A stretch of DNA of 64,000 bases from Trichoplax sp. H2 (taxonomy: Eukaryota): the NCBI GenBank assembly GCA_003344405.1, contig NOWV01000013.1, positions 930,001 to 994,000 of the forward strand, read 5' to 3'. The notes beneath the pieces were generated by a model. The model made no database searches. It was given only the letters and a program-made list of their open reading frames with translations, and was not told the DNA's origin. The position numbers and the translations under genes were made by a program. This document shows positions 10,534 through 61,100 of this stretch, piece by piece. Within the stretch, counting starts at the first letter, position 1. Every line of letters starts with the position of its first letter.

Positions 10534-11382
10534 GATTGTGCATAAAGACAGTAAGCGTTGACCAGATTTCGTTTTCGTTATTTGACAATGTTTTCTATTA
10601 CGCTGATGACTCTCTAACGAGCCTATACCACAATGAATAGTAAGTAATATCCAATGTTATGACAGCAAAGATAGTGTCCAGTTTACATGTTACTTATTGC
10701 AATTATCTACTGATGAGAATTAGAAATGGAAGTATTTCCAACATGATAGCAATAACAAACTTGCCTTACTGCTGATGTCAATTACAGTACAGCAAATTCT
10801 ATTCTATGATTATTACACTACAAGTGACGTGCAGTCCATATCAGAATCTTCCGTTGACCAAAGTATCTACTGTACAAACGGTAGATGATCATTCCAGAGC
10901 TACACTACTGTAGGTCTATGGACTAAGTTTGATTTTTCCAGCTGTTGTAGGCTAGTGAATCTTCAATTTCTGTTGCAATATCGTACAGCATTATTATTAT
11001 ATTCAAAATCAACGCAAGGCATACAGTACTGTATATGTAAAGTATCCACTGCAAGCTCTTCCATAAAGAAATTTGGACAGCGTTTCACTTACGTAATTTG
11101 ATCCTTTTGCCAATCAAAGTATTCAATTCAAGCTAAAAAGCCAAGTAAAATGGATTGATTGATTTTGCCTTGAAGGTTGATATATGAAATAGAAACCGAG
11201 TAGACTAGAGCGTGTTGACATCGGTGTCAAGGCAGACTGTGATTGCAGTATGCCAACTATTCGATCCTAATGGTCGCTATGGTAGTGTCCAAGTCAGTAA
11301 CATCTGATTGATCTGCTGATACTCGTTGGAAAAATTGTTGGAAAGAGTGATACGGTAATCAAACAGGGCATCCATTCTTTTA

Positions 11383-31556: not shown

Positions 31557-34500
31557 ATGGATCAAACCGACTACCAACAGCTTCCTGAATCACCCAATGA
31601 CTATAGTAGTCCATTTCACAAAACAAGTAATAAAAATTCGGTTGTGAAATCATCTAATGGTTTAAGTAATGGAATATCTAATGGCCATTATCAAAACGGT
31701 ACGGTTAACCAAGGTGCTATGGAACTACAGAAAATAACCAGGCCAGAAAATGGCCATGATGAGGTTAGAAGCAGTCGATTGTAACCATCTTGATCGATGG
31801 TCGTCATTTTCCCTTTCTGTAGAGAAAGACTTTAGTTTCAAGACGAGCACTTAGCAAAAGTCCTTTCTATACTTAATGAATCTTGTAGACGAGTAGAATT
31901 ATTTCATCTTTAATAAATAAGCATTGCTGCTTAGAGAAATAAAATGACGTATAAAATTGCTTTCATTTAGGCTCAGAAACAGACTGATCGCTCTGCTTTA
32001 ATTGAGGTAAGGAAAATCATCCTTTCATAGATGATAGTTTGAAGACGATACTCTTGAATAATTCAAAGCCATCCCCTTGTATTAGAATGTAAGAATAATT
32101 TTACTACGATGATAATCTCATTTAGCCATCATTTTTTGCTCCAAGTTGAGATGATGGATGATAAAATCCAGATAGTGAATGATAATTCATTATAAAAGGC
32201 ACCCAATTTCATAAATTTACGGCAAATATCAGATTGCTCAGAGTTTGCTGCGCCCAGGCTGCAGGACATCAAAATTGAATTTGAAATAGTTACCCAATTA
32301 TTCGCTGATGGTTTATTAAATCATTTAGTCTTGGTCAAGATTTCTATTTAAGTTAATTGATGTTATACTAAATATTGATATTTTATGGTATCATTTAATC
32401 TTACCCAGGGTCCTATTTGAGTTCTATGACATCACATACTGGTATAGAATGATATAATTTAGCCTTTCTGAGAAGTCCTATTTGCCATATTGAAGATTGA
32501 TATTGAATGATATCATTTAGTCTTATTCAGGGCTATTATTAGAGTTCATTAATATAGTATAAAAATAATAGTGCTTAACGATATCAATTAGTCTTTCTTA
32601 GAGCTCTTATTTGAGTTTTTGAATAACAGCATAAAATAGAAAGCAAAGAATAAATACATCGATCAAAAAAGTTGACAGGACATACGATTATGGACAGCTT
32701 TCACGGCTTTATTACGGATGGTGAACGAACTGATTTTAGTCTTTATTTAGTTGATGACAGTAGTAACTGGACCGTAAAATAGACTAATGATTGATAGATG
32801 CTATAAAATCGATTTCAACTTTGCAGATGGTGTCAATGTCATTCAGAACTGAAGAATGAAATATAATATTTTATTTCCTTTCAGCCAGACATTTAACCCC
32901 TTATAGAATGGAATTGCAATCTAGAGTGTAGGGAATGATTCATTATTTTCGCTTGATCTCAAAGCTTCGTAGTCAATTTCCAAACTTTGTCGTTGATTCT
33001 ATGCAATCCGATTTCGATTTACTGTAATCTTTCATCCAAGTGATTTAAAATAAAATCGAAACAGTAACCACAAAATAGTGTAGAAACTCCCTAACATTGC
33101 TACGGATTGCATGAAGGCTTTCAAAATCCTAACATAAATCGTTTATGATACCATTTAAGTTTTCACATAAGGTCCTACTAGAGTTACTCGCTGCTTGTTA
33201 AGATAGTATGTGTGCTATACGATTAGCAGATTTATCTTCTTACAGATTTCATAAGGTAGATTAGAAATCGAATTTGTTCAGAATTTTATCATTGCTCTGA
33301 TTTGAGTTTACCTATATTCAATTTCATAACTCCATTCAATCTTTGGTTTGGAATTTATATTTGAGTTGTTGGATAATAAAGATCTGAATGGAGAGCAGCA
33401 AAGTACCATCATTATAAATGGATTACGTATCAAAAATCGATCATTCATCTAAGTATCGAATTTCTGCAAACTTTCGAGTGTTTCTTAGCAATTAAAGAAT
33501 GTAAACTTCCCAAAAGTAGCTCAGTTTCCTTCTATAAATGACTAACTTCTCCTAATATTGTACGGACATTGACGTAAAAATGAGTACCATGGCTGTGAAT
33601 TCTTAGAAAAGGCTGGGTTGTATTAGAATCCTAATTTGAGCTTCTACTCAAACTAATATTGTCGTCAATAGTAGATTTATTTGAGGAGGATGTAATCATT
33701 TTTCTACGACTTTTTCACCATTAGAGTGATGAAGGTGGAAATGGAGATCAAGTTAAAAGTGGAATTGCATTAAGTTCCTTTAACTTCATCAATTCTATCA
33801 TTGGAGCAGGAGCTTTAGGTAAAGTTATCATTGTCCATGTTAACCAGTAGCAACTTGAATCTATTGCTATTGGAAATTGTATCATTGTATTGATGTAAGC
33901 ATGAATAAAAATGAAAAGATATTCAGTTTGTTTCAGTTTTACTGTATTAAAAGCTGACTACTAGTATAGAGTGGTACTATGTTAATATTGAGTTTCCATT
34001 TTATCCTTTATTAGAAAGAGTAGATACTTCATAAGACTAAAAGCAACATCTTTGATTGAATAGGAATGCCTTATGCGATGAAACAAGCTGGGCTATTTCT
34101 AGGAATTTTATTGTTAACTATGATGGCTGTTATAACAGGTACAGTATAAATTAAAAAAAATTTTATAGGTACTTTCTTTCTCTTAATTGTCCTTATTATT
34201 CCATGCTGATTCTTGAATTATTACCTTGAGATATAATATTGATCGTTGGCATTGCCTGCCAGTTTATTAAATCATCAGGATTACTTGATGGTTTATTTTC
34301 TTTCTATTATCTCTTCTTCCAGACTTTTAGTCTAGTATCGTCTATTTCCATTATACATTCTATCGTAACTGATTTTCGAGTTTCTGACTGTTATAGATAG
34401 AAAGGCTAGCTATCCCCTTACCATCAAACAATAATATTTTGATAGTACTCAACCTAGTAATGTAAAATGGAACTGATAAAGTAAAATCTTTATGGATTTT

Positions 34501-37500
34501 ATACTAATTTAATAAGCGGTTTCCTGGCGACCTTGCCTATTTATATATACGTATATAAATATGAACGTAGTATATTAATTGCATGATTTATTGAGCGTAT
34601 ATCAAATATCATACCCAAATAGTTCTAGATACGAGTTGTTTGCTACTTCAATGCGATAATAGTTTTGATGATAGATTTATTTGTACCTATATTAAGCTAT
34701 TCATCATTTGTAAACTACCTAAATACATAAGTAGGGACTAAATAACTGTAATAGTTTCATTGATCTGCTTATGGATAAAGCATATTAATTACTGGATGGT
34801 TATAATCAACTACCGCATTGTTAGGAAAAAACCCGTTTTTAACTATTGGTTGCCTGATCTGTTCATGCCAAAATTGAGTGTAGGGCAATTATTATCTGCT
34901 GCAAAGCAAGATAGAGGTAGATGAATTCAATAATAGCCTTGATGATCCACCACATATATTTTAATTACTCAGTAATTATTAGCTACCCGCAATGCCAAAC
35001 AGAACCATTTACATCGTTAATAGTAACCTATTAGATATACTCAAGTACTGTATAAACTATGTGACCAGACTTTCATCGACCACCGTTATTAAAGCAGGAA
35101 CCCGTCACAATTTTAATAATGATTTAATTAAATTGCTCACGTATATATTAATCTACTTTTAAATTGCGGACGATTATATTATCTTAAAAGACAGGATGGA
35201 TGAAAATTGACCGGAATAGATGATAGATTTTGTTCTTTAGAGAAATAATAGGGGAAAATAAGAGTCTGTCAAGTTGATGACAGCTATTATGCAATAATCT
35301 ACAGATTTTAAAATTAGACATTAAGGAAACTCATTTAATTTGTCAATGATTGCACGTCTTATGTACGTCTTTATCTATTTTTACTATAATCATAACTAAT
35401 GTCAGCGAATAAATGACTATACGAGTATGTAGCACTGATATAATTACGTGGATATCTTATATACGAGCTGATGGAAACAAGAATTAGCACGAATTTTACT
35501 AAAGTTTTATATACAGAAAAAATTGCATTGCTGTAGTATCATCGTAGAATGTAATTTTCTTCATAGCTTATATATGATTCTTTCTAATACACAAAATTAA
35601 TGCAAGCTATAACCTATGAGGGTTATATGTATAATCATCTACGGCTTGGTAAAATAAAATATGCTTATGGACTTCTCTGGATCTTTTTGTAAACTGTGAT
35701 AATAATACCCATTTTTCTTTATTCCTCTTTTTAGATTTTACTGTTATACTATTAGTTGAAAGTGGTTCTATGGCTGGTCAAAGTTCCTATGTGGTAAAAT
35801 CACTTATTGTAAAACACAGCTATCAAAGCTTCTAAAAATCATTTATAGCATAACTCTCCATTGTATGCAGTACTATGCACAGTATACCATATCTGAACTG
35901 GCCAAATTTGAGAACAACAAATGAACCAATAAATGATCTAATTATATCAGTTTATCTATGTAATTTCTAGAAGAAGAAATAATTTAGATTTCTGTTGTTA
36001 AATACGAGAGTAAAATTATCTGATTATTTTATTCAGGGTTTAATGAAATCAACGTTTGGAAATATCGGTTATGGATTAGTCCTTTCATGTCAATTCATAT
36101 TTCCATTCTTAGGTAATTGCTTTCCCTATAAGAATTGCTCACTCTTTTAGTTTTTGCTATTAGCTGAGATTTGATTTCATCAAGATAACGTTCCTTAGCA
36201 GAATAGCAAATTACTTCGGTTTTCTAAAATTTTCGATATTTTATGGCTCTTATATAATACATAGCAATGAATGGGTATGCTGTTATTGTTGGTGATTCAC
36301 TGGTTAAATTTTTCCAGCTTGTTGGTAAGTATTACCTTCAGGATGTTTTTGTGCTTCTTTTACTGAATTATATTACTTTACCTGATGACCTTCGTTCTAT
36401 TACTGCGTCGTGAGAAATTGTATTTATCTCTAATGTTGCTGACATAAATTACTTTTATCAAACTTTACAGGTCTAATCCATATCATTTTACTTTTTCTAT
36501 GCATTTTAGGCGCCGAATCAACTATTTTAACCAATCGACAATTTGTTATTGGCATTTCCATTTTATTGATAATGACGCCATTATGCTTGCTGAAGAAAAT
36601 TTCAAAGCTGGGCATGGTATAGGCATCAATTATAAACGAATCCTTATCTAATTATAATTCAGTGTACAGTACATATACTGCTATATTATCAAACTTGGTT
36701 CTCTCTTTTTATTGTCAAACTGTGGATATCGTGATTGAAATTGAATCTTTCTACAACAGGCCTCGTTTTTTTCACTAATTTGTGTCGGTGCGGTTATTGT
36801 CACTGTTTTTATAAGATTAGCCACTCTTGGTCCTGATATGTAAGTGATTAAATGTAACCTACCGTCTTTTTACTTTGAATAGTTTAGTAACTATGATACA
36901 TTAAAATACTATAAGAGCAAATCTATGGCAGTATAAGTTCCTTTTAGACGTACCTAAAACATTTTTTTCCTTTTCTGTTCATTCCTGACAGACCACACAC
37001 CGAAGGAGCTTTCAATTTCGCTCACGAAAACGTACCTCAGGTAAATTGCTCATAGTGGGCTTGTCTGTTTACTTATTGCTAAGTTGAGATATTTATGATT
37101 TAATAAATTAGTCGATGACCTATTATAAGCTGTGGTACCAATAGAGATGCAATTTCGTTTCTTCTAATAATTCTTATCCTTATTGAACAGGCGATTGGTG
37201 TAATGGCTTTTGGTAAGGGTTTTGCATATTAAACGATTGAGATAAAATAGAATAATATAAATTGGGTTTTGTCTTGGCTATCCTTTCTATATGCTATAAC
37301 GGTAGTTCTCACAATTTCTGGTAGATAAATAAATTATGAATTACTCTAATGCTGTTTAAACTATATTTCATCCAAATTTTCCTTTTAATACAACCAAAAA
37401 TTACGCTATTGCTTCTAAATCGTGAAAAAGTTAATGCAATTACACTCTTAAAGTTTCCATCCAGTTTTTATATACTATCACGACACCTACTACTAATTCC

Positions 37501-39371
37501 TTGTAGATAAATATCATGAATCGCTCTAATGCTGCATGACACATCTAGTAGTCCATGGACTTTTCCTTTCGATGCAGCAGTCTTTCGCTATTTCATTTCG
37601 GGGAATCATAAATTCTCAACTAAACCCTATTCTCCATGGTTCTATCCAACTTTTATTTACTGTATCCCCTAATCCTTATTAGTTCTTCAAGACAAGTACT
37701 ATACGTTACTTTCGAATGAGAAAAACTTCGATTCAGTTGTTTTTCTAATTCCTATCATACTATTATGTGCTATCGCAGCAATGTCTGAAAGACAGCCGAT
37801 ATCGATCATTTCAGGATTACTCGTATACAAAATTTCGTCTATTCATTGCTCTATTCCATTTTCAGCTTTCGTGTGCCATCACAACACGTTCTTAATCTAT
37901 AATTCCTTAAAGACAAATACCATGGATCGCTTTATGACTGTAACGCATATTTCCGTTTCTCTATCGTGGATGTCGGTTATATTGCTATCCGTTGCTGGCT
38001 ATATGACATTTACGGGCCATACTCAAGGTAATCCATTTCATTCTATCGGTATATTAATGTCTCCATTAAACTATGAAGTTTTATATTGTTGACAAGGCTA
38101 AATATTAATGATATAAAGGTTAAGTCGGGATGCTAATTCAAGTCTTTTCTTTCTTATAACTTAATTTAACAGCGGATATTTTAGAGAATTATTGCAGTCA
38201 TGATTTCTTGGTGACCATTGCACGCTTATGTTATGGTATAACCATGATGTTAACTTATCCTATAGAATGCTTCGTATGTAGACAAGTAAGTAAGATAGAA
38301 CCAATACAAGCAAATAGCTAGCTGTTGAAGTTTATTGAAATGTCGTAGGTATAACTTTAAAATTATTTCCACGTAGATTATAGAACTTGTCTTTTTTGCT
38401 GGGCGAGAAGAATCAACCAGTCGTCATATCATTGTTACCTTGGCAATTATCGCTGCGACTTTACCCATTCCAATGGTTACTGACTGTCTTGGCACAGTTC
38501 TAGAACTAAATGTGAGAGATTATGTCTTATATAGGAAACGGCATTTTGTAGTTTATAGGATATTACCTGTCCATTCTCTATATCTAACGCATTGGTTGTA
38601 GGTCCTCGGACTTCATGTACTTATTTTTACTACCATTTTGATGACAATGAATGCGAATTCTCTCAATTTAACGAATATAATATCTATTTTAATTTTTTAT
38701 AGGGAAGCATAGCTGCAGTTCCATTAGGTTAGTTACCCATATCTAAACTTATTTGATAGTTGTCTCTAGCTTTAATTCAGAAAAATGCTATAATATGGTC
38801 AATTACTGGGAATGGTATAGCATTAACACCTAGGCAAGAAATAGCACTAGATAATATATTAACTAATAGTAAACTCATATGATAATTACACTGTTAGTAA
38901 GGTCAAGTTTAGATTTAAAATGTCATTTGAAATGATAAATTAACGAAAACGATACCCCAACCCTAATTAGGTGATAAATAGTATTTAAATATATTAGATC
39001 TAAGCGATTGTTTTACTTGGAAGTAGTGCTGATGATATCAGAAATTGGTTTGCTAAATGATAAATTAACCAAAAATGGCATGGCAGTCCAACATGAGCGG
39101 TAAACATACTAATAATATTTCTCTTTCATTATTCACCATTTTAGTTTTTATTTTTCCTTGTGCTTGCTATATAAAACTGGCTGAAGGATCAAATTATGCT
39201 CCTCGCAAAGTTATATCTGCAATCATCTTAGTGATTGGTATCGTAGTCTTAATCTTGGGTACTATCACTTCTATACTGGGAGCAAGAGAGTGTACTAATA
39301 CGCATAAACCACAGTTATCTTGGTGTAATGCCACAATTGATTTAAACACTACCAACAGCCTTTATTACTAA
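31557..39371 (+). CDS. SLC38A11: SLC38A11-like amino-acid transporter (AAAP/APC fold), paralogue A, 16 coding exons
   Basis: Exons start at about 31557, 31971, 33725, 34064, 35735, 36037, 36264, 36510, 36760, 36992, 37191, 37866, 38173, 38377, 38703 and 39145. Motifs: SSFNFINSIIGAG.LGMPYA.KQAG, QF.FPF.AM..Y...VGD, QAIGVMAFAFVCHHNTFLIYNSLK, GY.TFTG.TQ.DILENYC, MLTYPIECFVCR, DCLG.VLELNG, FIFP.ACY.KL. The luminal tail has a Cys pair and N-glycosylation sites, typical of SLC38A11. Confidence 0.95.
32310..32640. repeat. Degenerate tandem repeat, unit about 60 bp, intronic
   Basis: ATCATTTAGTCTT...AGGG.C.TATTTGAGTT recurs about 5 times. Confidence 0.65.
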
Positions 39372-42300
39372 TGCGATTTGATTCAAGTGGGTTGTAAGTA
39401 ATTCTGCGATATGATACAGTTACTACCTCCAATTACTGTACGTATAGTTAACATAATCATGATACTGATGGATTTAAAATAAGAATCTTATGACCCTCTT
39501 GGAAGAAGACTAACAGCAATTGTAATATTATCTATATCTTTTATGACTTATTTGATTGGCAGTCAATTCAGATAGGTAGATATATGATACCTGATAAAGC
39601 TGCAGCTGTCTTGGGTGATATTAATATCAGTGTCCTTTACGACTGAATTTCAAGCATCACCGAAATAGCAAAGTTTAATACTTTTATACTTTCAAAATAT
39701 ATATCATTACTTATCAACAACGCATTTAGAGCTAGCCTAATAAAAATCAAAGGTAATGCAACATCATCGAATTATCTAAGTTAATGCCATAAGTAATGTT
39801 AAAAGTGTCAAAATTCCGGGACTAATTTGATTATATGCAAAAGGAGATATACGGTACAGTGATATTACCGGAATATCTAGGTTTAGACTTAATTCTACCT
39901 TCATAAATATATTCATTTCATGAATTATGCGTTTTGTGACTAATGCGACTAGTTTTAGACTCTAATTACATATTGATGTTAACCAGTATCTTCATAAACG
40001 GATTTGCCTATGATGGATGATTGATGAAGTGATATCCGAGATTATTTATTGCCCCAATTTAGTGTTAACCTTAAGTCTTAATAGTGAAATCCATTCACTA
40101 TCATTTTAACTCTACTAGTTAGTGTAAGAGTTCACAATTATGCTTATGTAAACCAGGAAGATACAATTTGAGTTATCTCTGTAATTTCCGCTAGATATTT
40201 TGATTAGTTGATCTGCCCAAAAAGTCGTAAAACTAAAGCCACCATAACTATCGTATGGAGCGATTATTACATAGTAGTGTCTTATGTTCTGAACTGCTTG
40301 TTGCATATTTAGCTTAAATATTACCTTTTTGCAACTTAAACTGAAAGTAACTAACTTTACCATCTATAGACCAGCTAAATACATGTATAATTAAAGCGTA
40401 TGTTGCTTAAGTTACACTACACAAAATTTGGTATCGGAAATTGCCATCTAACTCACAATGATATTGATAAGTGATTCTGAAATGTAGTGACAGGATATGC
40501 TAATTTCAAAGCACTTCCTCCATAATAATTCCAATTTCAATTATAGAATACCCTATTAACTTCTAAACGTTTGATAAAATTTCCTATTAGAGGACAGCAA
40601 TGATATATATATATATACATATATACAAATATAGCATTGAAACTCAGAAATTATTATGCGCCTTGCTAACTAGATACGGTAATTTATGTATCTACAGGCC
40701 AGTGTTACTAATATGATGGATGAGTATTACATAGACATATATATAGATTATGCTACCAAAGTATTTACAGCTACGTTGTCTAAGATCAGCTTTCTTCGCT
40801 GGTTACTTAGCTAATATATACAAATTTGTATTTACGAGTGCTTAATGTTTGCTTTCATGATTGATAAAATCAAATTTTAGCAGAAGGCAACTTAAATAGA
40901 TTACGCAAAGTATACTTTGCTAATACGTAAGATTTCCGATTAATTTCATCTTCTCAAAGAAAAAACTTCATTGCTTAAAAAACTATCATGTGATCAACGC
41001 TACAGATTTATTGCAATCTTATTATGGTTATTTCGAGATATCAAGCAATTAATCTATTTTCATTTCGTTAATCCTGTTATAAATGATATTGTGATTATTA
41101 ACTATAGTAACAGAATTAAATTATGTCTTGGTATGTCAGAATCTAGTGTTATGTTGGAATGTCTTTTAAGCTCAGAGTGTAATATCTATGTTATCATGGT
41201 CTATAATTATTAAAGTGGTAATACTTTTAGTATAAGATATGTTACAAATTATAACATCAGTAAATTTATTTAGAATTAACAATGCTCAAAAATGTTCTAG
41301 ATATATGGATAAAGGCTACATAATCACTAGAATAAAAGAAACACTTGTTAAAAATCGATGTAATACATCAACGGGCGTAGATTTTGTATAAATGCAACAA
41401 GAGTATTGTACCAATGTATAAAATCTATCTCGGGCTTATTAGTGAACCTTGTGAGATTCTTACATCATATTACACGACACATTTGATTCTGCTTACAATA
41501 AGGTGTCGATTTCGTATCAATAAAGTACGAATATATTACTGAAATACCTACCATAATTAATTGTTTGAATATGTATACGTGTAAGACCACAAAAAAGTTT
41601 CATTTCGAGCTTATTAACGAACTTTGTGAGGTTCTTATACTATACTTTTGATGCTAATAAAGTGTAATATATTCAAATAAGGATGGGTTGTCGTTCGCAT
41701 GCAGTTAACGATTCCATCTTTATATGATTAAATGGTGACGGTGGTGTATTATTTAGTAAGGTATTAGTCAGTAAATGTAGAATTGCAACGATTACACGGT
41801 AGTCTATACCTACCAATATTACATCGTAAATTTCTAAGTACAATTAAGCAGCCTAATGTGATTGGATCCTATCAAACATGAGATTGTGTGAATATGTTGT
41901 TGTCAAACTGAGAAAATATCTAAGGAATAGCGCGCCTAATCCGAATAAAAGGCTAACGTATTTACTAATAAGCTCGAATGAAGACGCAGAGATGATTGAA
42001 CTGCTAAACTTTGCCGTATATTATGCAGTTGTCAAATCGATTCAATTTCATTATACTAGGTCAACAAGAAGAGACTAGCAATATCCATACTTTTTGATGA
42101 TAATAAGGAGAAAAGCATCCTCAAGATTTAATAGCTTCTTATAATTGTAAATTATGATCACCTTCTGGTTGAAAGCAACCGTTTATGCAAAGTCGTCGCT
42201 TTGCGCCTGTATAGACCAGATTACAAATACATTCATAAATATTACTTAGGATATTGTTGATGATATTATTGGACCCTCATTTTCATGGGTATAAATTTCT

Positions 42301-44989
42301 AATAACGCTATAGATTTAAGTTCTTTATAGAATTCTCTGTGAGTACAAATGTTCAAATTTGATTCAATAATCATCACAAATTATTGTTAACCAAAGCAAT
42401 ACTTAAATTTTGGATTATCAACAACTCTATACCTATGTGATTTATGGGCAAGTTTAAATGCTTGTACGTAATGACTTTTTACAATAATATCAGTTTCGAA
42501 TTTACCGACATTAAAATTGATGGATCTCTAATATCCCATTTTAAAATTAAGTTAATGAGTTCATTTGAGCTCAACATATTTCGCTATTATTGTCTAAAAT
42601 GTAAGTATACCTATGAGCAAACTTAACATTTAATTTGTTACGGCAGTTGAATATTGATTTCGTAGATATCGATTAACGAATATGAATTATTGATACATAA
42701 ACCCTTCTTTTCGTTATGGAATTGCAATGGATCATAATTATTTCATCAAGTCGCTAATGTAAAAATTTTTATAAGTCTTTGAATTTTACCGTCATCGTCT
42801 TCATCTTAATTTAAGTATACTTATTAATGAACTTTGGATGTTATCAGTGATCTTATTTTATAATAATTTAGCTAGTAAAGGCTAATAAATATAGGTTGAG
42901 TGATACGTCAAAGAACTTGTGTTGTAGTGGTATTTGTAAAACTTTCGAATCTATCTATTACAATTGTTTTTAATTCAGCTGGCATTACCATTTTCGACAC
43001 TATAATATTTCTACATTTATCTAACGGGATGCTGATGAATGTAATTTATACGTATGATATATAAAAGTTTCTATAATATTATCATATATAATTAAATTAT
43101 AATCATCTTGATATAATTTCGATTTATATGATATTGTATGTTGAATACATTTAGAATAAGCACATATGGTATTTTCATTTTGTAAAGACAATGAGATATT
43201 ACTGTTACTTACTTTTATGAAGTAATAAAGACTATGCACCGGTCTTAATTACCGGATAGGCTTTATTCAAGTTGACTGTATAAAAATAAGAATTTCAATG
43301 ATATTTATAATAAGAATGCTACTATGTATACTCATATTATTTTGGAATATAAAACAACGCCTTTTAAAAGAATACAGGTTCATAAAAATAAGACTACTAT
43401 TTAGCGACAGCAATTGATATTTTAATCATGAACAATAATATCAACTACCACAGAGATTAAGCCAATGAGCGCTAAATTAAAGTTTGCTTCCTGAGTTTCA
43501 TATATTAGCTGTGATTGATTGTGAGGCAATTTACTTATCGCTTAATAATTTATATCATCAGTACTAAAACGATATTGAAATTATTAAATTACATTTCTTG
43601 AGGTTAAATTTGATTTTCTCTGATCATTGCCAAGAGTAGAATCTTATTAACAAGTAAAGGTAAATATGCCAATTAAATCAAGTAATCAATATTATGTAAC
43701 GATATCTATTGCTCCATCTTCAGTTGTTCAAATTGTTGAACTAACAAAATCAGTCTACCCTTCTTAAATACTCTATCATTTTTATACCTGTAAATTATAA
43801 TTGTATTTGCAATGGGGTATTTGATCATTTAAGAGTGTATCAATCCAGTACGTTGATAGGATCCGTAATAGCTGTCTGTAAGATTCTACATCTCGTAGAT
43901 ACAGATTTAGAGAAAATGTTGCCAGGGCATTGATTATTTCAAAGTCTATTGAACTATTTCGTAGAAAATAATAAAATAACTTGTCTATTTCTCAAAGTAA
44001 GGTTCTAGCCAGCTGTTACCAATGTGCTAGTTAATAATGGATTTTACCTGTTATTTTTGACATTATCAAGACAATATTAGGCCTTTCAGTGTAGTGGTAT
44101 GAATAGAATGAAATCACTGAGGAGGCAATTAATAAATAATTGTAATTGATAGGAAACAGGCGTACAATGCAGCAATTAGCTTTAATGTCTCAATAATTCA
44201 TAACACCTAGGCCATGTTAATCTAACCTTTAAATCCATATCTATAACAATTTTAATGTAGTGCTCCAAACCGTTAGGCTACCGATATCGGCCAAGATGCG
44301 ACCTAAAATATTTTAATTCTAAATGATGAAGAAGTACCGCACCAAAGTTTTATCATCGCTTCTCATAATTTTTTGTCCCGTCATATAAATAAATATCCGC
44401 TATCTTTACCTTCAACAATACGCCAATTGTAACACCATTTTTAGTCACCTATTCGCAGTTATGACATATTGGTAATCAAAAGAAGGTAAAACTACGAGTA
44501 TAGTTAAACAGTCTAAATCAAAATATCCAGGGCTTATGTAGATTCTAAGGTGTAAGCATCATGTTATTTTTGTAATGGCAAAATACCTGTATATTGAATA
44601 TAAAATTATTCTAGAAATTAATATTAAGAAAGCGAAAGTATCGAAGCTTTCTTTTGCCTTTACGTACAATATGCAAACCAGTAGTAATTTTATGCTTTGT
44701 TTTATTTCAATCTCAATTTTAGTTGCCAAGGCTGTTTATATGAATGATAATATTAGAAGAGTTAAACTAATGTATTGACGTCAAGCTATCTGGGCAGAAA
44801 ATACAATATTGATGTTCAATGCAATGATTATAACTACTCTCAGTTATTGACTTGTTAATGCATCATAGTTTATTTTTAAACAGCTCTACCATAGGAAAAT
44901 TTCGTGTCTTTGATACGGTATCTATGCGTAGCTTACAGCCGATATCTCGGAGTATACAGGTAACTAAAGCTGTTGAGAGTTTGCAAATG

Positions 44990-45425
44990 CTGTCCTATAG
45001 CGAAATCTATCTAGTCCTACCAGATAGAAATGAAATCAATCTGTTAGTCCAAGTGCCAGGGAACATTTTAAACTTTCATACGTAATCGTGGCGCATAACC
45101 TGGTATATTTAGTCGTACTAGATAGGAACGAGATCAACTCCTTCTAGCCCAAGAACTATAGGATATTTTTAACTTTCATAGGTGATCGTAACGCGTACGC
45201 TTCTATATTTAATCTTACAAGATAGGAACGAAATCAATTCTCGCTAGTCTAGATACTAGGGTAAATTTTAACTAAACTTTCGTACGTGATCGTAACGCAT
45301 ATTCTGCTATATTTAGTCCTATCAGACAGAAATGAATCAATTCCTGCTAGTTAAAGTACTACAGGATATTTTAATTAAACTTTCACAGGTGATCGTTTCG
45401 CATACCCTACCATATTTTAAGTTTC
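44990..45425. repeat. Tandem array, unit about 100 bp, about 4.5 copies
   Basis: TAGTCCTAC.AGATAGGAACGAAATCAA...AAACTTTCATA.GTGATCGTAACGCATA recurs at about 45012, 45110, 45210 and 45314. Confidence 0.85.
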
Positions 45426-50000: not shown

Positions 50001-53000
50001 TTTGGAAAGCCAGGCCATGTTATAGCACTTTTGACACAATTTTTGTATCCGTTTATTGGTATATAATACAATCATCATATTCTTTTCCTGCTACCAATAT
50101 TATCAATTACGTTGTACTAAAACTATTTTTCTAGAGAGAATAGTTGTAAAATAAATGCTCTATTATTGATGTAGAATCAAAACTCCATGATAATTACGAG
50201 TTAATTTTCTTTCTATCTCTCATTTTCAATCACTAGCTTTAATGGGCTATTGCGTGGTCGTTGGCGATATTTTTACCAAAGTATTTCGACTTTTCGGTAA
50301 TTAAAGTATTTTATTTAATCAATTTTAGCGTACTTTTTATTGGTTATTTAACTACCGGTACCTTATATATATGCGCTACTATGTACTGCTCGGTACATGA
50401 TTCATTTTATTAAGTCGTAATGTCATAAAGATTGTTATTGACTGGTTCATTAACGATTTACTTTAGAATATTAAATATCGTAGACTAGAGTTTAAATCCT
50501 ATTTTTGAGTTCTATTCCATAGGATCAATTTATAAACATCGTGTCATGTGGATCAGAAGTGTTTACTCATTTACGATTCGTTATTTAGAGTATTTCGTAT
50601 TATTGACTAGAGTTTGAATCCTATTTTTGAATTCTATTTCGACGTTATCAACTTATCAACATTATGTCCTATGGATTATTATTAATGCTTATTTCATTTA
50701 CGATTCGCTATTCAGAGTATTTCATATGGTTGGCTAGTATTTGAATCCATTTCGACTACTACAGTATTTCGATATTATCATTTATTAAGACTATGCTGTA
50801 ACGATTATTAGCGTTCCCTTCATTCGCGGTTCGTTATTTAGAATATTTTATATCGTTGGCTAGAGTTTAAATCCATTTTAATTCCCTTTTTCCATAAAAT
50901 CAACTTATTAAGATTAGGTCATAAGGATCATTAGTGTCTACTCCATCTGTGGTTCGCTATTTAGAGTATTTCATATCATTGGCTAGAGTTGAAATTTATT
51001 CCGAGTTCTATTTCGATATAAACAACTTATCAAGACGATATCATAAGGATTACTAACGTATTTTATATTGTTGACAAGGTTTAATTTCATTTTTGAATCC
51101 TGTTTCCATAGGATCAATTTTTTACGAATATATTATAAGGATCATTAGCTTCTACTTTTACTATAATCTAGAGCATTCCATATCGTTAATTAGAGACTAA
51201 ACAAATTAGGCAAATTGCTTATTTTTTTATACTTTAGATGTTGCCCTATGATTAAAATCTTTTTCACTAGCTAGTTAAGAGATGGAAATATCATGTAGGA
51301 TAGGTCTTGATTACTCTTTCGATGTATCACATCGTAAAATTGCCATTTGATGTAGTAAAATATCAGATTAAACATTCTTGTAACGTAGCACCGTACTAGC
51401 TTGATTCTATTTATCACTATCGCCAAGTCAATGACATTTTAAAGTAGATGATAGAATTCCAAATTCTTTCTGTAGATTCTCCATCCAAAGCAGTTGATGC
51501 AAATATCCAATTTAACGTGCGTCATTTGCCCAACCTATATGGAAATAGCAAGATGCTAATCAATACTTTACAGAGTTATCAGCCTCATTCATAATTAGTA
51601 AGGCAATAAGTAATACCAGTCTAAATTTTATGTTGTATTTTTAAGGATGACTTATAAACAATTTCAAGTATTACAACACTTCCAGTACCCATTTTAAACA
51701 TTAGAATTGAATCATTATGCCACGATCAAATTGCCTTAATATATAATACTTCAGATATCGTCATAAATTTTGACTTTGAATAATCATTGCACGATGATAG
51801 AATCTTACTATAACTTAAGTATGGTTCATTTGCTATTTATTAGGAGATGATGGAAATTTACTAACAAATCGGCAGTTTGTTATTTCTGCTGCAATATTAC
51901 TCATTATGGGGCCATTATGCTACATGAAAAAAATATCTAAACTTGGATGGGTAAAATTAGTTAATAATAGAGTGAAGCTATACTTCAGTTTGTGATTTTG
52001 CGCTAGGTTTCGGTGAAGAATGAATTTTATTTTATTGACTATATTTATTTTTAGACGTCCTGCTTATCCTTTATTTGTGTTGTAATATTGGTTATTGTGG
52101 CTGTCATACGAGTAGCAACGTTGGAAACATACATGTAGGAGAAACCATTTTTCTAAAGATGCTCCAATATAGATAAGAGATTCGATTTGAATTTTCATTT
52201 TATATTATCGTTCTATGTGTTTATAGGTATCTTGAAAGTCAATCCATACAGTTTGCTGCGCCAAAAGTACCCCAGGTAGGAGACTAATGGAATATGTAAT
52301 CGTTTTAAAGCGGAATATCATTTCTGGAGAATCAAATCGAGCGAAATAATGATTAGAATCCGTTCACTGATGATGTGGTAACATATTGATATTGTATATT
52401 TTAGGCCTTAGCCATCATGCAATTTAGTAAGACAGCAGGATCAATTATGTTAACTATCATTTGAAGTTATATCAAAAATTTGAATACGTGGAACTCTTTA
52501 AAACATGGGGCAATGCAACTTCGTCCTCAATTTTCTCGATTTTAATCCTACAGCATTCGTTTGCCACTACAATATTTTCATTGTGTATCGCTTCATGAAA
52601 AAAAAAAGTGAAGAGAGAATTTCTAGGGCATGTCATACCGCTGTTGGAATTTCTTACCTGCTCTGCTTAGTCTTGGGCATCGCAGGCTATTTAACGTTTT
52701 TAGATGCAACTCAAGGTAATAAAGTGAACTAGTATCATGACCATCTTAATACCTATACTCTGTTCAACTATAATAGTTTCTGTAGCGATCATGTGCTACA
52801 GTGTTTTCTTGCGCTTTCACTCTTTAACGTAGTTTTAGTAGCACGGCTAAGCAGGATTTGTAAAACTAGATTGTTTTGCAAGTATGAACAAATTGTAACT
52901 ACGATTCATTTTTTAGAATTAGCAGCATAGATTCGCTCAATTTTTTCATCTCAGTAGCGATATTTTTGTTATAGATCAATAGCCGATTAAAAGTCGGATG

Positions 53001-54165
53001 AATCTGACATTTTGATCCGCATCTTTAACTAAAATTGGATGCCTAGTGTAACTTTAGCTTCCCATCCAATTAACTATACAGTAATAATGGTAGCTAAATA
53101 TACTAAATAGAATCCATACTGCAAGATAAGATGTTGCACATTGATTTTTAATGGCTACAAACATGTCAAAATGTATATTACATGAAATTTTCTTATAATT
53201 TCATAAGTATAGTATGATTATAGCGAAGCATTATGACTGTTATAACTGCTCAGTTATAGGAACTAGCGATATTATCGACAATAAATCCTTTCTAATCATA
53301 TCTATTTCCTACTAGCCGATATTCTGCAAAACTACTGCGTTCATGATGTGCTCGTTAATGTGGCTCGAATTTGCTATGGAATTTCTGTGATGACTATTTA
53401 TCCTCTCGATTGTTTCGCTTGTCGAGAAGTATGTTGAAATTGAAGACATCTCCGTAACAAAGCTTGCTAGCAATTTGTCCTAATCTTTATTTCTGTCCTT
53501 ACTACTTAATTTAGACTGCTGATCAAGCTTTATTCCCAGACAGACCAAAGTCTACTCTACGTCGGGTAGTAATCACAACCTGCGTCATTTTGGGAAGTTT
53601 ACCTGTACCACTCATTACCAGTTGCTTAGGGACAGTTTTGGAATTGAATGTAATTCTTTCAATATCCTAATCATATACATTAGTATTAACTTTGAACTTA
53701 TAATTTTTGCAATATAAAATCGATTAATCTCAAAATAGGACTTGTCGTGAGTTTGATAGTATTACCCAAAATAACATTACTAAATTCCGTTTATTTACCT
53801 CATGTTTGTTATTATTGTATAACTTAGGGAAGTCTAACAGCAGCTCCAATAGGTAAAAGGAATGAATGGATGATTTGAAAGAATGTTGTTTAAAATTGTG
53901 GTTAAATTGTTCTTGTGCTTTATATTTAGGTTTCATTTTTCCAGCCGCTTGCTATCTCAAAATAGCGAAAGGTTCTCTGATATCGCCATCAAAGTTAGCT
54001 GCTGGATTTATTGTAGTCTTAGGAACCTTTGCATCTTTCTTGGGTACAATTTACGCCATTATTGGAGCTAAAGGATGTGGCCATCATGTATTAAATCCAT
54101 GGTGCAATGAAACTATGTTTTCTAATGACAGCTATATCACGATACTGAATAATACATTAAAGTAA
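47027..54165 (+). CDS. SLC38A11: SLC38A11-like amino-acid transporter, paralogue B, 16 coding exons
   Basis: Exon structure is collinear with paralogue A: 47027-47227, 47448-47474, 47801-47900 (SSIFNILNTIIGAGIIG), 48059-48133 (IPYSFRLAG), ..., 52227-52275, 52405-52426, FVCHYN..., GYLTF..ATQ.DILQNYC, M..YPLDCFACRE, CLGTVLELNG, last exon FIFPAACYLK...CGHHVLNPWCNET...LK*. Confidence 0.94.
48400..49260. repeat. Degenerate tandem array, unit about 170-200 bp, intronic
   Basis: GATTACCATTGTCATA.AC..ATTTATGG.CATTTAAATA and GGAGTTG.TGAAAATTG recur (48523, 48689, 48894). Confidence 0.7.
50445..51200. repeat. Degenerate tandem array, unit about 123 bp, about 6 copies, intronic
   Basis: GATTCG.TATTTAGAGTATTTCATAT..TTGGCTAGAGTTT.AATCC recurs at about 50485, 50607, 50734, 50860 and 50983. 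Confidence 0.85.
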
Positions 54166-57100
54166 TAGCAAAGTGACTAATTATTTTGGATAGGAGGGAC
54201 ATTGCCTAATAGCAATAAGCACGAAAATTTAATTTTTTGACGCCCTATTGATATAACTATCTGAAAATCAAACTTGATAATCATAGGAAGATTGTTTCAA
54301 TACCTTCAATATTTATTCTAGAATTTTCATATTTCAGTCTTATTTTCTCTTGTGATTACTTCGACTCGAAATTTCAGGCTGATTTTGACAATTCTGCTAA
54401 ACCTATTTAAAATTTTGTTAAAATTTATTGGACATATCAATAAGCATGTAATATATTTCCCCTAATGAATAAGAAAAGATAAATTATGATGTAATATGGA
54501 ACTAATTGATTCAAAGAAAAAAAAGATAAAATCGTAAATTGAATTAAAATTGCAAAATCTGCTTGGATCCGTATATATGCATCATTTCGATGATGCTTAT
54601 TTGTTTATTCCGAATGGGATAGAGACTAATTTTTCCTTTGTTGAAGAAGGATAACCTTAACTACAGGGAGTTCTGCTATAAAATTTATGTCTTTAAGGAT
54701 TGTTATTTAAAATTATATCAAAATCTTAGAAAGTGAACTAAAAGTTCGTCGATATAGGGTTGATGAATCAATTTGTATGCTCGTCTATCGGTTTTGTGTT
54801 TGATTATTTTAACAACCTTTAAGATTCGTGAATGAAAAGAAAATAAAATTGTATGCATTTGAAACCAACAATTCTAAATATACTTCTGCTGATATTTTAC
54901 TGCATATTAGCATCTTAATCGTGTATGTGAGCTTTCTATCTTATTATAAGCAGAAAACATGTTAGATACCTTAACAAAACCTAGCGTTTATTTACTAAAG
55001 TGATGAAAAAACAAAACTAGAGGACGTATAGTTTAGTAGAATCAGTCAAAAATAAACTTGCTAATTTATAATTATAGTAAATATTTCCACCTTTAAGAAA
55101 GACATAATACGATAGTATCAGTTTTTGAATACCAGTTGAATTATTTGGATAGCGTAAAGAGCTGATTTTGGGAGAGCAAATAGAGATTGATTCTGTTGGT
55201 TGGCGGAGAAACATTGCAGATTGTAATCACTTGTACTCCATAACATTAGCTAGCTAAGAATGGAATAGGCTAGGCCTATTCCATCTTGTGTCGATTTTAT
55301 AGGAACAGGATGAGGATTGAAATCAATACAATGTTTATAATTATAGCTATAATATGTGCAAGAACCAGGCTCAAGTACAATAAATAAAAATTTTGTAAAA
55401 AAAAATTGCAATACGACGGTTTATGAAGTATCTCGTCCAAAAAAAGAAAAGCATGTAGCTACCGCAAATTGTGGCCTAATAATTTTTCTTTATAATATCC
55501 ATTACAGCAAACTGTAGGCTAATAGCCCTTGTAGTAACATCGAATTGCACCATATGCTATTATAAGGACTTTCATAAATGATAATTGCGTCCATACTAGA
55601 GTATATACATTAGGGCTCTCTCTAATGAATATGGTAAATACCTATCTAAGATCAGAATAATATATAATTTCAGCAAACTATGATGTAATAATCTTTTCAA
55701 AAAACCCCGAATTATTTCTTTAGCGATTATAAAGAGTTTAACAAGTGATAATTACACAATTTTATTTGCATTAGGGTCCTAGAACATGGAGCTCTTAGCA
55801 CTCTAAAGGTGCCACTAAAAATGTAAGTACTCGAATCAAACCTAAATAATTGCTATTCCAGCAAGAAGATGATTTTCTGATTGTTTATTAATGCTTTAAT
55901 TTCCTTCATAAATCAATTATCATATCAAGAAATATTGTATTATTAGCAAGATACAACTTTTGAGTTGAAAGAGTCTAGGAGGAAAATTTTGACTCAATCG
56001 CAGACTTTTAGTTAACGATTAAATTATTAATGATACTTGATCAAAGATCATGTGGTATCCCTTTCAATAGTTTCTGTAATACCTTGATAAAGCAAAGATT
56101 GGTATAATTAGGGCGTCCAATGAGGTGTCAATTATGATATTTTGCCTTAGTCAACATAATTAGTTATTTTATCTATTTTATAATACAACTCAGGGATTGA
56201 TTGCGATACATTGCTCGCTTTTAAAAAGTTAAGCGAGTAGTATTAATCTTAAAGTTTATAATCCATGAAGGTTGTTAAAATTGGGTCTAGCTTTTAATCG
56301 ATCTTTAAAAGATAATCTAGTCTATAGGGGACACCTTAGACTGTTTTCATTATGAATCCAGGTGAGTATTAGTTTTACCCTTGTAATAGACTTGTAATGT
56401 ATGTTATATCCAGGTTAAAAATCAGATGAAAGCAACACTTATAGCCGAGGCATATCTGTTCATACAGATAATACAGATTGATCTTAATTCCTAGTAAAGT
56501 TCTGGAAATACTAAAACTTCGTCATAGAGACGAATCTTGCTTTGAGATGTTAGCGATATTACGCAATCTCTATTTTTCATGCAAATATATCGTAGCGAAC
56601 TGGTTCAGTGATTGAGTATTAAATCTAGAATACTATAGGGCTAAAACATGAATAAATACTTGATTGAAGTCAGAATAATGGAGAGGTTTAATTTTACTGC
56701 TGCGGCCAGGTAGATACTCGATCAGCGCAATAAATAGGCTTCAATTTGATTGCTAAGCTGCACGCCTACTCGATTTGTACAATAGATAGATTGAATATTG
56801 TAGTCAGCTAGTAATGCTAGATGATAAAGGTACGAATAGATTTAATCACATATTTCCTTCATTTTCTTTAAAGGTATACCCATGATTAAGGAGGTAGTAG
56901 ACCAGCGTAGTGGATCGACTTAATTGTTAGGCTGTTGATTATTATATACTCGTATATACGAGTATGTTAAATAATGAAAGTGAGAAGATTTTAACTCAGG
57001 TATCTATCATAAGGTTATAGAGATACAAATTAGTAATAATTAGGGTTAGTTTTTAGACTATGAATGATACTGAATGATGAAAGCGCTAATGGATACATCA

Positions 57101-58155
57101 TTTATTGCCTAGAAACCTGCAATTAATTTCTAGAACTATTTAAGAGCTTTTCTTCGTTTACTAGCAGTAAGCAAACAGAAATGAATTAATGTCGGTCTTC
57201 CTGCCAAGTTAAACTATATCCAAGTCTGTAGTTATTAAAATAGCAATCATGGTGTTTACTGAATATATGACGATAGATATCATTAACATTTGATATTTTT
57301 CCTTCTTTGCTTAAACATAAATCAATGTTTGCCTAACGGTGTTGATTGCTTCAGAAATATCGCGTTAAAAATTCAATAAAAGAGTGGGTATATTGAATAA
57401 ATAAATAGTGGGAGTATAATGAATACGAATGAGGTGATGGCTGTTTCATCTTTACTTGTAAGCAAATAGACAAGTACAGCCATGGAGATACTCTTAACAG
57501 CAGCTTATGGGCTAGTTTTACTAACATCCTATAACAATGTAACTATAGGCATAATAATGTACTATAATGCTCTTTATTTATACTGAGAAAAGAGTCCTGG
57601 CCAGATTAATCATTTTGGTAATTAACTACCGGGAAGGATTGAAATTATTCCGATCGCAAAGAATTTATCTCAGGTTTCAAAGATTCACTTCATTTTGACA
57701 TTCACTGTAATTTGTCATAATTATTCCTTGTATGCCCTATGTTGCTCAAGATGGACAAGTGTCCATTCACTTAAAATTGCTACTGTATTAAATTAGTAGC
57801 CGAACGTGAAGTTCTTATTTAAAATAGTAGAATAAAATACGATTCATAGTCAAGTTATAAGCTGATAAATTTGAGAATATAAAATATTTTAGTTTTGAAG
57901 ATTAATTTTCCTTACTATTGACCATGAAACTGCTGTTATACGAGTAATTAAATAGTAATAGATAAATATAATTGCCATAAGCTCTCAAAAATGGATTCAT
58001 TTGAATTTTTGGAAAGTTGCTCACAGTCCCTTAATGAGATGAAAAACTCTTCTATTGCTTTCCATACGTTGATTAATTATTGAATCGTTCTTCGCTGACT
58101 GTAAAAATTTTCTATTTTCAGCTCTTGTGAAAATCGAGTTTAGTAAGTCAAAAGG

Positions 58156-61100
58156 ATGAAAAAATTTATCGATGGTTACCAAGCGGTGGATAATAAAACT
58201 AGTTCAAGTCAGGAATCGACTAGACTATTCTATCATGTCGAATCAGAAGAGCATGTTAGCATAGATGATATTTATAGGAGAAGAAGTAGTTCAGACACAA
58301 GTTCAATCCAAGGATATCAAAATATAGTTGATGCAAGTGAAATAATGGAAATGAAAAGCATTCCTATTAATGATGCAGGTGTAAGTGATAATTGTAGGGG
58401 TTTTTAGTTGATGACCTGAGGTACCTTTACGCCATATTGTGGTAGATTCTGAATGGAGTAAAGCTGAATAGTAGATTTTATGAAACAATTTACGAGAGTA
58501 GAGCCACCCATTCTTGTAAATACATAATACCTAGGATGTACTCGAGAAATGAGCTACATATGATTTAGTTCATCTCTATAGAACTACTTTAAGGTATTTG
58601 AGAAAAGATTTTGTTAAATAATCTACTCGTGCAAGTACATAAGTCTTAGGATATACTTGAGAAATGAAGAAAAAATATGGTTTAGGTCATTTCTGTTTAG
58701 AATTACGGCAGTTAAAACTGTATGAGAGGAATTGTAGATAGAATAATCTGTTGTCGCAAGCAAAGTACAGTAATTCTGTTAGTATTTGCAATAGTTTTAG
58801 GTATCAAATAGAGGATTGAAAATATCTATTTGAAACTAGGTGAATAAATTAGAAGTTGAAACTTTTTTTAATTTGAAACGAATGAAACACTTTGTTCACA
58901 AAATTATTGTTGTGGAATTCTTTCAGATTTCTTTTTATAAAGTAAATTGAAATGAGAACATTCTTTTACCCAATATCAGAAACAGTACACTTGTATTTAC
59001 GATGTGCAAATACAGCCAATTGATCCATTAAATTCGTGATTGTTATTTAACAAACTTGGGTTTTTATTTTAGGATGGCAACTGTGATGATCATAGTTTGC
59101 TTTTAAAGGTACGATTCATCAAGAAAAACGGGTGAAAATATCTAATTTATTGGTCGCAAAAGAATAGTACTTTCAAGTTATTATGAATAAGATGAAATAA
59201 TTTACTATGTAGATAGACAATCATAAGGAAAATGATAAATCTGGCATTGCTTTATCCTCGTTTAACATTATGAATACTATCTTAGCTACGGGCATCTTGG
59301 GTAATTGATATTTTTACTATTTGATATGCTAATCTATGCAGATAGTATAGAACCTAACCAATTTTTTTTATCTATATCGCCAATCACAGGAATACCCTAT
59401 GCTTTAAAGCAAGCAGGATTTGTTATGGGCTTAATTATTCTCCTGCTTGTCGCAGCTATATCAGGTAATGTCTATTTTATCCTTCCATCACCACAGTTGC
59501 TTCTATGAAAATTACCAGCTAGGCTATTTTTAGATATTTTGGAATTTCCTTCTTTATCAAGATGGTGTTGTGATGCTAATGCCTCCGCATTAATCAAGCA
59601 TTTCTTAGCAAACGTAGAATATAATGAAGTATTTGCAACAATCACCATAGACGCACTGATTATAGATAATCAGCGATGTTATAGAAATTTCCTTCTTTAT
59701 AAATGTTGTGTTTTGATACTAATGCCTTTGCATTAATCAAGAATTTTTGGTATACTATATGCAGAATATAATGGAGTTTTTACAACATCATTATAGACGC
59801 TTTAATGATAGAGGATCATAGATGACCATCGATGTTTTAAAATTTTCTTCTTTATAAATATTTTGTGAAAATGCTGATACTTTCACATTAATTATCATTT
59901 ATAACCACATTATTAGCTTAGCTTCTAGAAGTTTGCTTTACTACTATACTGATGGCTAGGTATAACTAAGACATGCTTTATCCAACTACTGTATAATGTG
60001 TATATATGGCGGATGCACTAACAAATAGGAAGTTAAAAGTTTCTTATCGGTCATGTTGAAATCGATTTTTAATTGATTGCAGATTTTACAGCATTATTAT
60101 TGATCAAGTCCGGCAGATTAGCCAGTCAGAGCTCTTACCAGGTGAGATAGAAGATCCTTTTTGGCTTATTTGAAATAGCTTGATCATTTATACAGCATAA
60201 GGAGTCTACTTACATTTCTATTTGCTTCAGAGTGTTTATTGAAAAATATTGACTAATCAAGGAGCCAATTAATCATCATTTTATTCCAGTCTTTATCATT
60301 GCTTCTTTACACCATAATTACGGACATTATTTCCAATGCGTACTATGTCTTTATTCCGAATTTTTAATTATCCATATTCTATGGAGGCTAAAATTACATT
60401 TGAACAGATAACTTTGTATGAAATCGAGGAAATTTAAAAATACAATTTGTCAGCGATATCACGCCTTACATACTTATTCTTGTCGCCTATTTCATGACTT
60501 GGATATATTGCTGATCTAGCCTTCTCAAAATGCAATTATAAAATTATGCAAGGAATATTTTATAAAATAGAAAAAAAGTAACAAGCAGAATACAGAAACA
60601 TAGTGAAATATTGCAGATAATACTAGACGGGTAGTTGCTGATAGATGATAAAAATGTTAGAGGTTAATAAATATTGCATGAGCATAAGTGTTGCCATTGC
60701 TTGAGGTATTTTTATTAATGGCATTCGCAATCAAGGTAGCCAATAGCCTATGTCATTTTAACGGAAATTACTGTGCTGAATCAATCTTTTGCTTTATAAA
60801 AATAGCTGATGCATTTACTTTGTTTTAAAATGAAACACAGAATCTTGCCAGGGCTGCCTTTGGTAATATGGGTTATTATCTTGCACTAGTCTGCCAGTTT
60901 TTATTCCCTTTTCTTGGTTAGTCGATAAAATCGTTTAACCTACGATGGAAATGCTTAAAAGTTCGGAGACTAATTAATATTTAATGTAGAGCAGGACTTG
61001 ACCAGTTTATAGTGGTTAATGGACGTAAAATGGATAACTAATTGTATTTTATATATGAAAATATTCTAATAATGCTATTAGCCATGATGGGATACCTTGT

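Follow-up and report, generated by a model that had tools for sequence, protein, structure and literature searches.

A leucine-based motif on small symmetric exons in the amino-terminal tails of three tandem SLC38A11-like transporters of Trichoplax sp. H2

The window analysed here is a stretch of 64,000 nucleotides (nt) from Trichoplax sp. H2 (contig NOWV01000013.1, positions 930,001 to 994,000) that encodes three related membrane transporters, each with a very small exon coding for a leucine-based motif in the amino-terminal tail. The three multi-exon genes, named A, B and C, are arranged in tandem on the + strand from ~31.5 kb to the window end, as found by tblastn of the gene C protein P0002 on the window, which is AT-rich (GC ~0.30-0.34 around the three genes). 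P0002 has 508 residues. Its residues 99-479 match the Pfam domain Aa_trans PF01490, which spans the whole membrane core (E = 1.6e-64; score of 218.6 bits for a cut-off of 25.6). The best named relatives of P0002 are SLC38A11 proteins, annotated as 'putative sodium-coupled neutral amino acid transporter 11', from lamprey, many molluscs, insects, the sponge Oscarella and a nemertean; identities are 35-42% and E values lie between 1e-106 and 1e-83. Genes A, B and C are read as tandem duplicates coding Aa_trans transporters of the SLC38A11 type. Their putative orthology to SLC38A11 is based on the best named matches, with which the shared tail motif agrees.

Gene organization and the three microexons

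The gene bodies and the exons that surround the first transmembrane helix (TM1) are:

33725..63950, + strand, bodies of the Aa_trans (SLC38A11-like) genes A, B and C (tblastn of P0002, Pfam, and GT..AG joints in A and B)
To ~39371 for gene A, to ~54165 for gene B and past the window end for gene C, + strand, extent of each gene body (tblastn of P0002)
31512..31763, + strand, gene A first coding exon, with acceptor at 31512, ATG at 31557 and donor after 31763 (sequence and contig joint 31763>31971)
31971..32006, + strand, gene A microexon, 36 nt, phase 0-0, AQKQTDRSALIE, motif DRSALI (sequence and contig joints on both sides)
33725..33818, + strand, gene A TM1 exon, SDEGG...FNFINSIIGAGALG (sequence, tblastn and the joint into 33725)
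47024..47227, + strand, gene B first coding exon, ATG at 47027 (contig joints 46800>47024 and 47227>47448)
47448..47474, + strand, gene B microexon, 27 nt, phase 0-0, YNDKQALIP, motif DKQALI (sequence and contig joints on both sides)
47801..47900, + strand, gene B TM1 exon, HSTDDDD...FNILNTIIGAGIIG (joints 47474>47801 and 47900>48059)
58156..58380, + strand, gene C first coding exon, 75 residues from the ATG (sequence; 99-100% match to P0001 and P0002)
59073..59108, + strand, gene C microexon, 36 nt, phase 0-0, DGNCDDHSLLLK (sequence, tblastn and gene models P0001 and P0002)
59213..59300, + strand, gene C TM1 exon, IDNHKEN...FNIMNTILATGILG (sequence, tblastn and P0002)

The original prediction, drawn from the DNA letters, had called the three microexons with AG/GT ends and phase 0-0, and a check of the sequence in all three genes agrees with these coordinates, ends and phases. 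The exons are preceded by tttag, gacag and tttag and followed by gtaagg, gtaaga and gtacga in A, B and C, respectively. Their lengths are all multiples of 3, with phase 0 at the ends of the upstream exons (31763, 47227 and 58380) and at the starts of the TM1 exons (33725, 47801 and 59213). The microexons are symmetric and their skipping would therefore be in frame, removing only the motif. Each encodes, as had been proposed, a sequence that conforms to the canonical [DE]xxxL[LI] (acidic residue at -4, L at 0 and L or I at +1): DRSALI in A, DKQALI in B and DDHSLL in C, the latter with DHSLLL as alternative register. The motif ends exactly one codon 5' of the donor in all three genes.

The tails are otherwise unalignable, as first claimed: 19, 187 and 201 of 300 shuffles attained the local alignment scores of the exon-1 peptides, and the first coding exon of gene A yields a non-conserved tail of 69 residues. 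The DNA of the microexons is little more alike among the three genes (identity of 0.37-0.56 over 27 nt) than that of the flanks (0.30-0.45), and contributes little to the argument.

Contigs from four sequencing runs of four studies were placed on positions 31500-51499 of the window, which include the microexons of genes A and B. Run X8 is RNA on record while X4 and X6 are RNA by guess. The contigs of these three runs, one for each run, have GT..AG joints, after shifts of the cut, at 31763>31971 and 32006>33725 in gene A and at 47227>47448 and 47474>47801 in gene B, so that the predicted junctions of both genes were matched to the base in three runs of three studies. Further GT..AG joints are found inside the bodies of genes A and B. 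Run X5 has no joints and its contigs run unspliced through both exon-1 donors; it therefore resembles DNA or unspliced material and serves as contrast only. Among the 15 joints listed of 30, those at the microexons are all of inclusion and none skips the exon in gene A or B, in contigs that lose rare variants.

The contigs also modify the proposed position of the microexons between exon 1 and the TM1 exon. They lie 5' of the TM1 exon as predicted, but genes A and B have a further 5' exon upstream. In gene B it ends at 46800 and is joined to 47024 (X4 and X6), while in gene A the contigs of the same runs have a loose end before 31512, at an AG acceptor, which points to an upstream 5' exon beyond the 31500-51499 segment. 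The microexons of A and B are thus third exons at least.

Two unnamed proteins, P0127 (gene A) and P0089 (gene B), match from the TM1 exon onward (33725 and 47801) and have differing starts: an unrelated sequence of 16 residues in P0127, and in P0089 a start MWQ that comes from the intron at 47792-47800, just before 47801. In both, the two exons seen upstream in the RNA contigs (first coding exon and microexon) are missing, so some public gene models are truncated. The contigs correct the models of genes A and B by adding them.

The microexon of gene C is found together with the exon-1 peptide in two gene models, P0001 and P0002, a support for the exon call at model level and not at transcript level. 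P0001 is the NCBI Trichoplax adhaerens protein TRIADDRAFT_54868 and reads ...INDAG DGNYDDHSLLLK IDNHK... around the exon. The three microexons are real coding exons that are always included in the data at hand.

Some variation was noticed in these exons. At positions 59082-59084 of microexon C the window and P0002 code for C and P0001 has Y (DGNCDD versus DGNYDD), the motif being identical; exon 1 of gene C is 99% identical to P0001, with one I/M difference. In microexon A, three in-frame AG acceptors (31971, 31977 and 31983) are nested and share one donor. The contigs use 31971, and minor forms that lack 2 or 4 residues and keep the motif are possible from the sequence. The exon-1 peptides of A, B and C (31557-31763, 47027-47227 and 58156-58380) each have a G-x-Y-Q or G-Y-Q element (GHYQNG, GSYQLG and QGYQNI). 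Mammalian SLC38A11 starts with M-G-Y-Q-G-Q, and invertebrate bilaterians have E-[KN]-S-[YF]-I-L close to the amino terminus. The element of exon 1 may be a second conserved motif of the tail.

The three introns, taken from the exon-1 donor to the TM1 acceptor, were scanned for open in-frame AG..GT segments of 15-63 nt. There are 34 such segments in A, 13 in B and 16 in C, and [DE]xxxL[LI] is found among them at the claimed sites only (in A three nested acceptors share a donor, in B an acceptor has two donors, and in C there is a single segment). First-order Markov simulation at the same composition gave a motif segment in 28% (A), 6% (B) and 14% (C) of the trials, and in all three introns at once in 0.25% of 2000 trials. 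When the motif is also demanded to end one codon before the GT, 933, 179 and 490 matches were counted per 20000 trials; their product of ~1e-5 serves for orientation rather than as a formal probability, because the motif pattern was picked post hoc.

Conservation of the motif and of its exon

The motif was sought as [DE]xxxL[LIVMF] starting 19-31 residues before a TM1 anchor of signature N-x-x-N-S-I-I-G-S-G, in tails of at least 35 residues. It is present in register in 26/29 animal homologues, 5 of 34 having been dropped for their short tails. After shuffling (1000 times per tail) the motif was present in 1.0 of the 29 on average and in 5 at most. The background was taken from 135 distant Aa_trans representatives (P0101-P0235), of which 24 without anchor and 10 with short tails were dropped; the motif is found in 8/101 of the remainder. 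Trichoplax motifs begin 26 (A), 28 (B) and 25 (C) residues before the anchor and are thus in register with those of the homologues.

The anchor is present in 112 of 119 mammalian cluster representatives and 110/112 have the motif, 21-24 residues upstream of the anchor, most commonly as D-[RK]-E-T-L-V near the amino terminus. Tails of the homologues vary widely, yet nearly all keep D-x-[RK]-x-L-V or a close form (DTRGLV, DTKQLV, DMRQLV, DMKQLI, EDRGLL, DREALF and ESRHLF are examples). The leucine aligned to L85 of P0002 is conserved at 90% or more in an alignment of 40 sequences. Of the three homologues in which it is absent, two (Nasonia and Wasmannia) are annotated as 'isoform X2' and are short of exactly the motif segment. 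Conservation of the motif, originally noticed in the three paralogues, thus extends in register far beyond them in the cross-animal alignment of SLC38A11 tails. Judging from these sequences, [DE]xxxL[VILMF] at a fixed distance to TM1 is a family-wide feature of SLC38A11 from sponge, mollusc, arthropod, nemertean, lamprey and mammal.

The AlphaFold2 model of P0002, built with the 40-sequence alignment, has a confident core (mean predicted local distance difference test score, pLDDT, of 80.9; predicted template modelling score of 0.78). Residues 1-38 and 40-91 have pLDDT <50. The microexon codes residues 76-87, and the blocks over it average pLDDT 40 and 44 with only a weak helix at 81-87. The low pLDDT therefore predicts a flexible tail that is unpacked from the core, which fits an exposed linear motif.

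Annotated isoforms of other animals bear on the exon that carries the motif. The only difference within RefSeq isoform pairs of four Hymenoptera is a segment of 18 residues with the motif, GNSLGTDDSYDDMRQLVR or GGSLASEESYDDMRRLVG: Fopius arisanus (528/510 residues), Diachasmimorpha (529/511), Diachasma alloeum (529/511) and Linepithema humile (485/467). One more residue follows L-V before this segment ends, a border as in Trichoplax, with a one-residue ambiguity in the braconids. Isoforms X2 of Wasmannia and Nasonia lack the motif. The same holds for isoform X2 of the tick Amblyomma, another model of which has DTKQLV. One X2 isoform of Anopheles drops V-K after DDINSL and another diverges straight after SLVK; an exon border therefore lies there, two residues past the motif. 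The motif is found in all isoforms of Formica, Polyergus, Nylanderia, Oscarella, two scallops, Saccostrea, lampreys, Biomphalaria, Ruditapes, Ostrea and Crassostrea. The skipped insect and tick isoforms are computed annotations. In insect clusters of proteins from assembled reads (Logan) none without the motif segment was found, P0041 and P0061 being uninformative C-terminal fragments.

These borders suggest that the motif is carried by an ancient small exon. A border that recurs just past the motif, together with the skipped isoforms annotated in Hymenoptera, makes these genes a tidy case for studying the packaging of short linear motifs in exons.

Oyster isoform pairs (P0238/P0012, P0241/P0016 and P0074/P0008) vary in another segment of 15-18 residues, which falls after the E-N-S-F-I-L element and before the D-T-K-Q-L-V motif. 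As read from the isoform sequences, the tails of some lineages have two or more small exons that are optional.

Putative roles of the motif

According to the sequence comparisons the linear motif is real and conserved, and it probably has a function. A short acidic-leucine-hydrophobic element that keeps its distance to the first membrane helix, while the disordered tail around it varies freely, is characteristic of linear motifs recognised by a partner in the cytosol. Among known classes the acidic dileucine signal fits best, and the chances are about even that the motif acts as an acidic dileucine-type sorting signal read by adaptors. The microexon puts D-[RKH/D]-x-x-L-[LI] plus one residue into an amino-terminal tail that is predicted to be disordered and is otherwise fast-evolving, ~25-28 residues before the TM1 signature, as the Trichoplax form of the family-wide motif. 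Clathrin adaptor complexes AP-1, AP-2 or AP-3 would read it at their sigma/large-subunit site, and this would set the membrane address of the transporter, either the endosomal/lysosomal membrane or regulated retrieval from the cell surface. Endolysosomal residence, the destination first proposed, would be one possibility, and endocytic retrieval and polarised or vesicular delivery would also be compatible with the motif.

Signals of this kind are known in amino-acid transporters. The available part of PMC4649669 describes the acidic dileucines EREPLL of PQLC2 and EQQPLL of Ypq1, which send these lysosomal/vacuolar transporters to their destination via AP-3, and in Vam3p the acidic position -4 is critical according to the accessible text of PMC2132875. 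DRSALI, DKQALI and DDHSLL fit the [DE]xxxL[LI] consensus of the PQLC2/Ypq1 type. Like the signals of these polytopic amino-acid transporters, they would lie in an unstructured segment facing the cytosol. The Trichoplax motif differs in that it belongs to the amino-terminal tail of an Aa_trans (SLC38) protein and has a small exon to itself, in that binding and destination are predicted, and in the L-V of most SLC38A11 orthologues.

The endocytic dileucines of surface or trans-Golgi network-cycling proteins include SDKQTLL of CD3-gamma and DKHSLL of the Menkes ATPase. The former resembles NDKQALI of gene B and the latter DDHSLL of gene C, a resemblance that is a lead and not a test; a basic residue after the aspartate is common to these signals and the motifs of B and C.

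Animal microexons measure 3-27 nt in the strict sense and up to 51 nt in the broad sense, and the classical ones are alternatively included in neurons. The Trichoplax exons are alike in their size of 27-36 nt, in their symmetry and in coding a peptide that is predicted to be surface-exposed in a disordered region. They differ from classical microexons in that their inclusion looks constitutive, in an animal without neurons.

Several observations weigh against a dileucine signal. The strict L-[LI] is found in only 4/29 invertebrate and lamprey homologues and in 19/112 mammalian representatives, so AP binding is no more than plausible. L-V is the commonest pair across the family, L-M and L-F also occur, and the predominance of L-V outside Trichoplax weakens the assignment. 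L-V and F-V pairs can serve as dileucine-like adaptor signals, as in yeast ALP and VGLUT1. The basic residue kept at -3/-2 is no defining feature of adaptor signals and could mean another partner. The low pLDDT is compatible with a free motif and is no proof of it, and the tail would be cytosolic by the general topology of SLC38 proteins. One of the 26 matching homologues, P0035 (DVSTLL), probably derives from an aberrant gene model, and the homologues are related rather than independent, many being Hymenoptera or molluscs. A localisation of SLC38A11 was not found in the literature consulted: the protein is listed as of unknown location in the consulted part of PMC5444488 and as an orphan in that of PMC6985444, and that of PMC10658360 gives none.

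The L-V consensus and the conserved basic residue at -3/-2 speak for a functional linear motif with another role, which docks a different partner or folds back on the transporter as a regulatory plug. The short, low-confidence AlphaFold2 helix at 81-87 points in the same direction. Amino-terminal tails are regulatory in other SLC38 members, and that of SLC38A9 acts as a Rag-binding or plug element. However, the AlphaFold2 model leaves the segment away from the core (pLDDT <50), the canonical form is present in all three Trichoplax copies, in the sponge, in some vertebrates and in some insects, and the residues around it are acidic and rich in serine, as is usual for dileucine signals. A role of this sort is held here as a tentative possibility.

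If adaptors read the motif, the transporter could also be a protein of the cell surface whose endocytosis, polarised delivery or sorting into secretory vesicles is directed by the motif, instead of one resident in lysosomes. Dileucine-type signals bind AP-1 and AP-2 besides AP-3 (PMC2132875, in the part available), the C-terminal dileucine of NKCC1 directs basolateral delivery (accessible section of PMC7727275), and most characterised SLC38 members are listed at the plasma membrane in the available portion of PMC5444488. The present data do not separate these destinations, and such a surface function is considered rather doubtful. The nearest fungal relatives of the Aa_trans/SLC38A11 family include vacuolar transporters, which counts against a surface function.

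It had further been proposed that regulated skipping of the microexon in Trichoplax switches the transporters between lysosome and cell surface. The symmetry of the exons allows skipping in frame, and the isoform pairs of Fopius, Diachasmimorpha, Diachasma and Linepithema differ by the motif segment, so a splice switch is credible in Hymenoptera; X2 isoforms without motif in Wasmannia, Nasonia and Amblyomma also speak for it. In Trichoplax the listed joints of the three spliced runs at the microexons are all of inclusion, and the switch is therefore without evidence in that animal. The motif is kept, moreover, in all isoforms of 10 further species or groups plus Ruditapes, Ostrea and Crassostrea and in 110/112 mammalian representatives, while the insect isoforms are computed and no assembled-read protein without the segment was found. 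The switch is improbable in Trichoplax. NKCC1 (SLC12A2) offers a close parallel in the consulted part of PMC7727275: its exon 21, a short in-frame cassette exon in the tail of a transporter, is alternatively spliced and its skipping was once proposed to change sorting, but both splice forms reach the basolateral membrane, and a separate C-terminal dileucine is responsible. The two forms sort alike, which therefore calls for caution against reading a switch from exon content alone. A wider version, in which a small symmetric exon of pre-bilaterian age, with an adaptor-binding address label as all that it conserves, was kept separate from Placozoa to insects for splicing this label in or out, and in which one microexon would thereby let SLC38A11 reside both in lysosomes or vesicles and at the surface, is a long shot.

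Chance resemblance, with the microexons as spacer peptides devoid of specific function, is very improbable: the motif is short, degenerate and was picked after viewing the sequences, but the in-register pattern in three introns is estimated at ~1e-5, the motif is in register in 26/29 homologues and 110/112 mammalian representatives versus ~1/29 after shuffling, and it survives in tails otherwise devoid of similarity.

SLC38A11 is described as an orphan, of unknown substrate, function and location, in the parts of PMC6985444 and PMC5444488 consulted; the former treats the protein and Drosophila CG13743, members of the same transporter family, in this way. Its motif, six residues that keep their distance to TM1 in sponge, placozoan and human-lineage mammals, is a concrete handle on this protein. 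No literature linking SLC38A11 to a leucine motif was found in a search that left subscription journals and supplements outside. The motif and its deep conservation in SLC38A11 appear to be unreported, while a dileucine-type motif on a small exon in the tail of a transporter is of a known kind.

Other features of the window

Two open frames on the - strand upstream of the transporter genes match Pfam domains. The frame at 10183-10656 corresponds to INSIG (insulin-induced protein; E = 3.4e-16), and that at 13358-13708 matches the catalytic end of Peptidase_C48 (Ulp1/SENP) barely above the cut-off (E = 2.8e-4). Three tandem repeats are also present. The repeat at 8827-9217 has 8.7 copies of 45 nt with 95% matches and is open on both strands as a repeated peptide, the one at 9694-9981 has 6 copies of 48 nt, and that at 20884-21709 has 4 copies of 210 nt.

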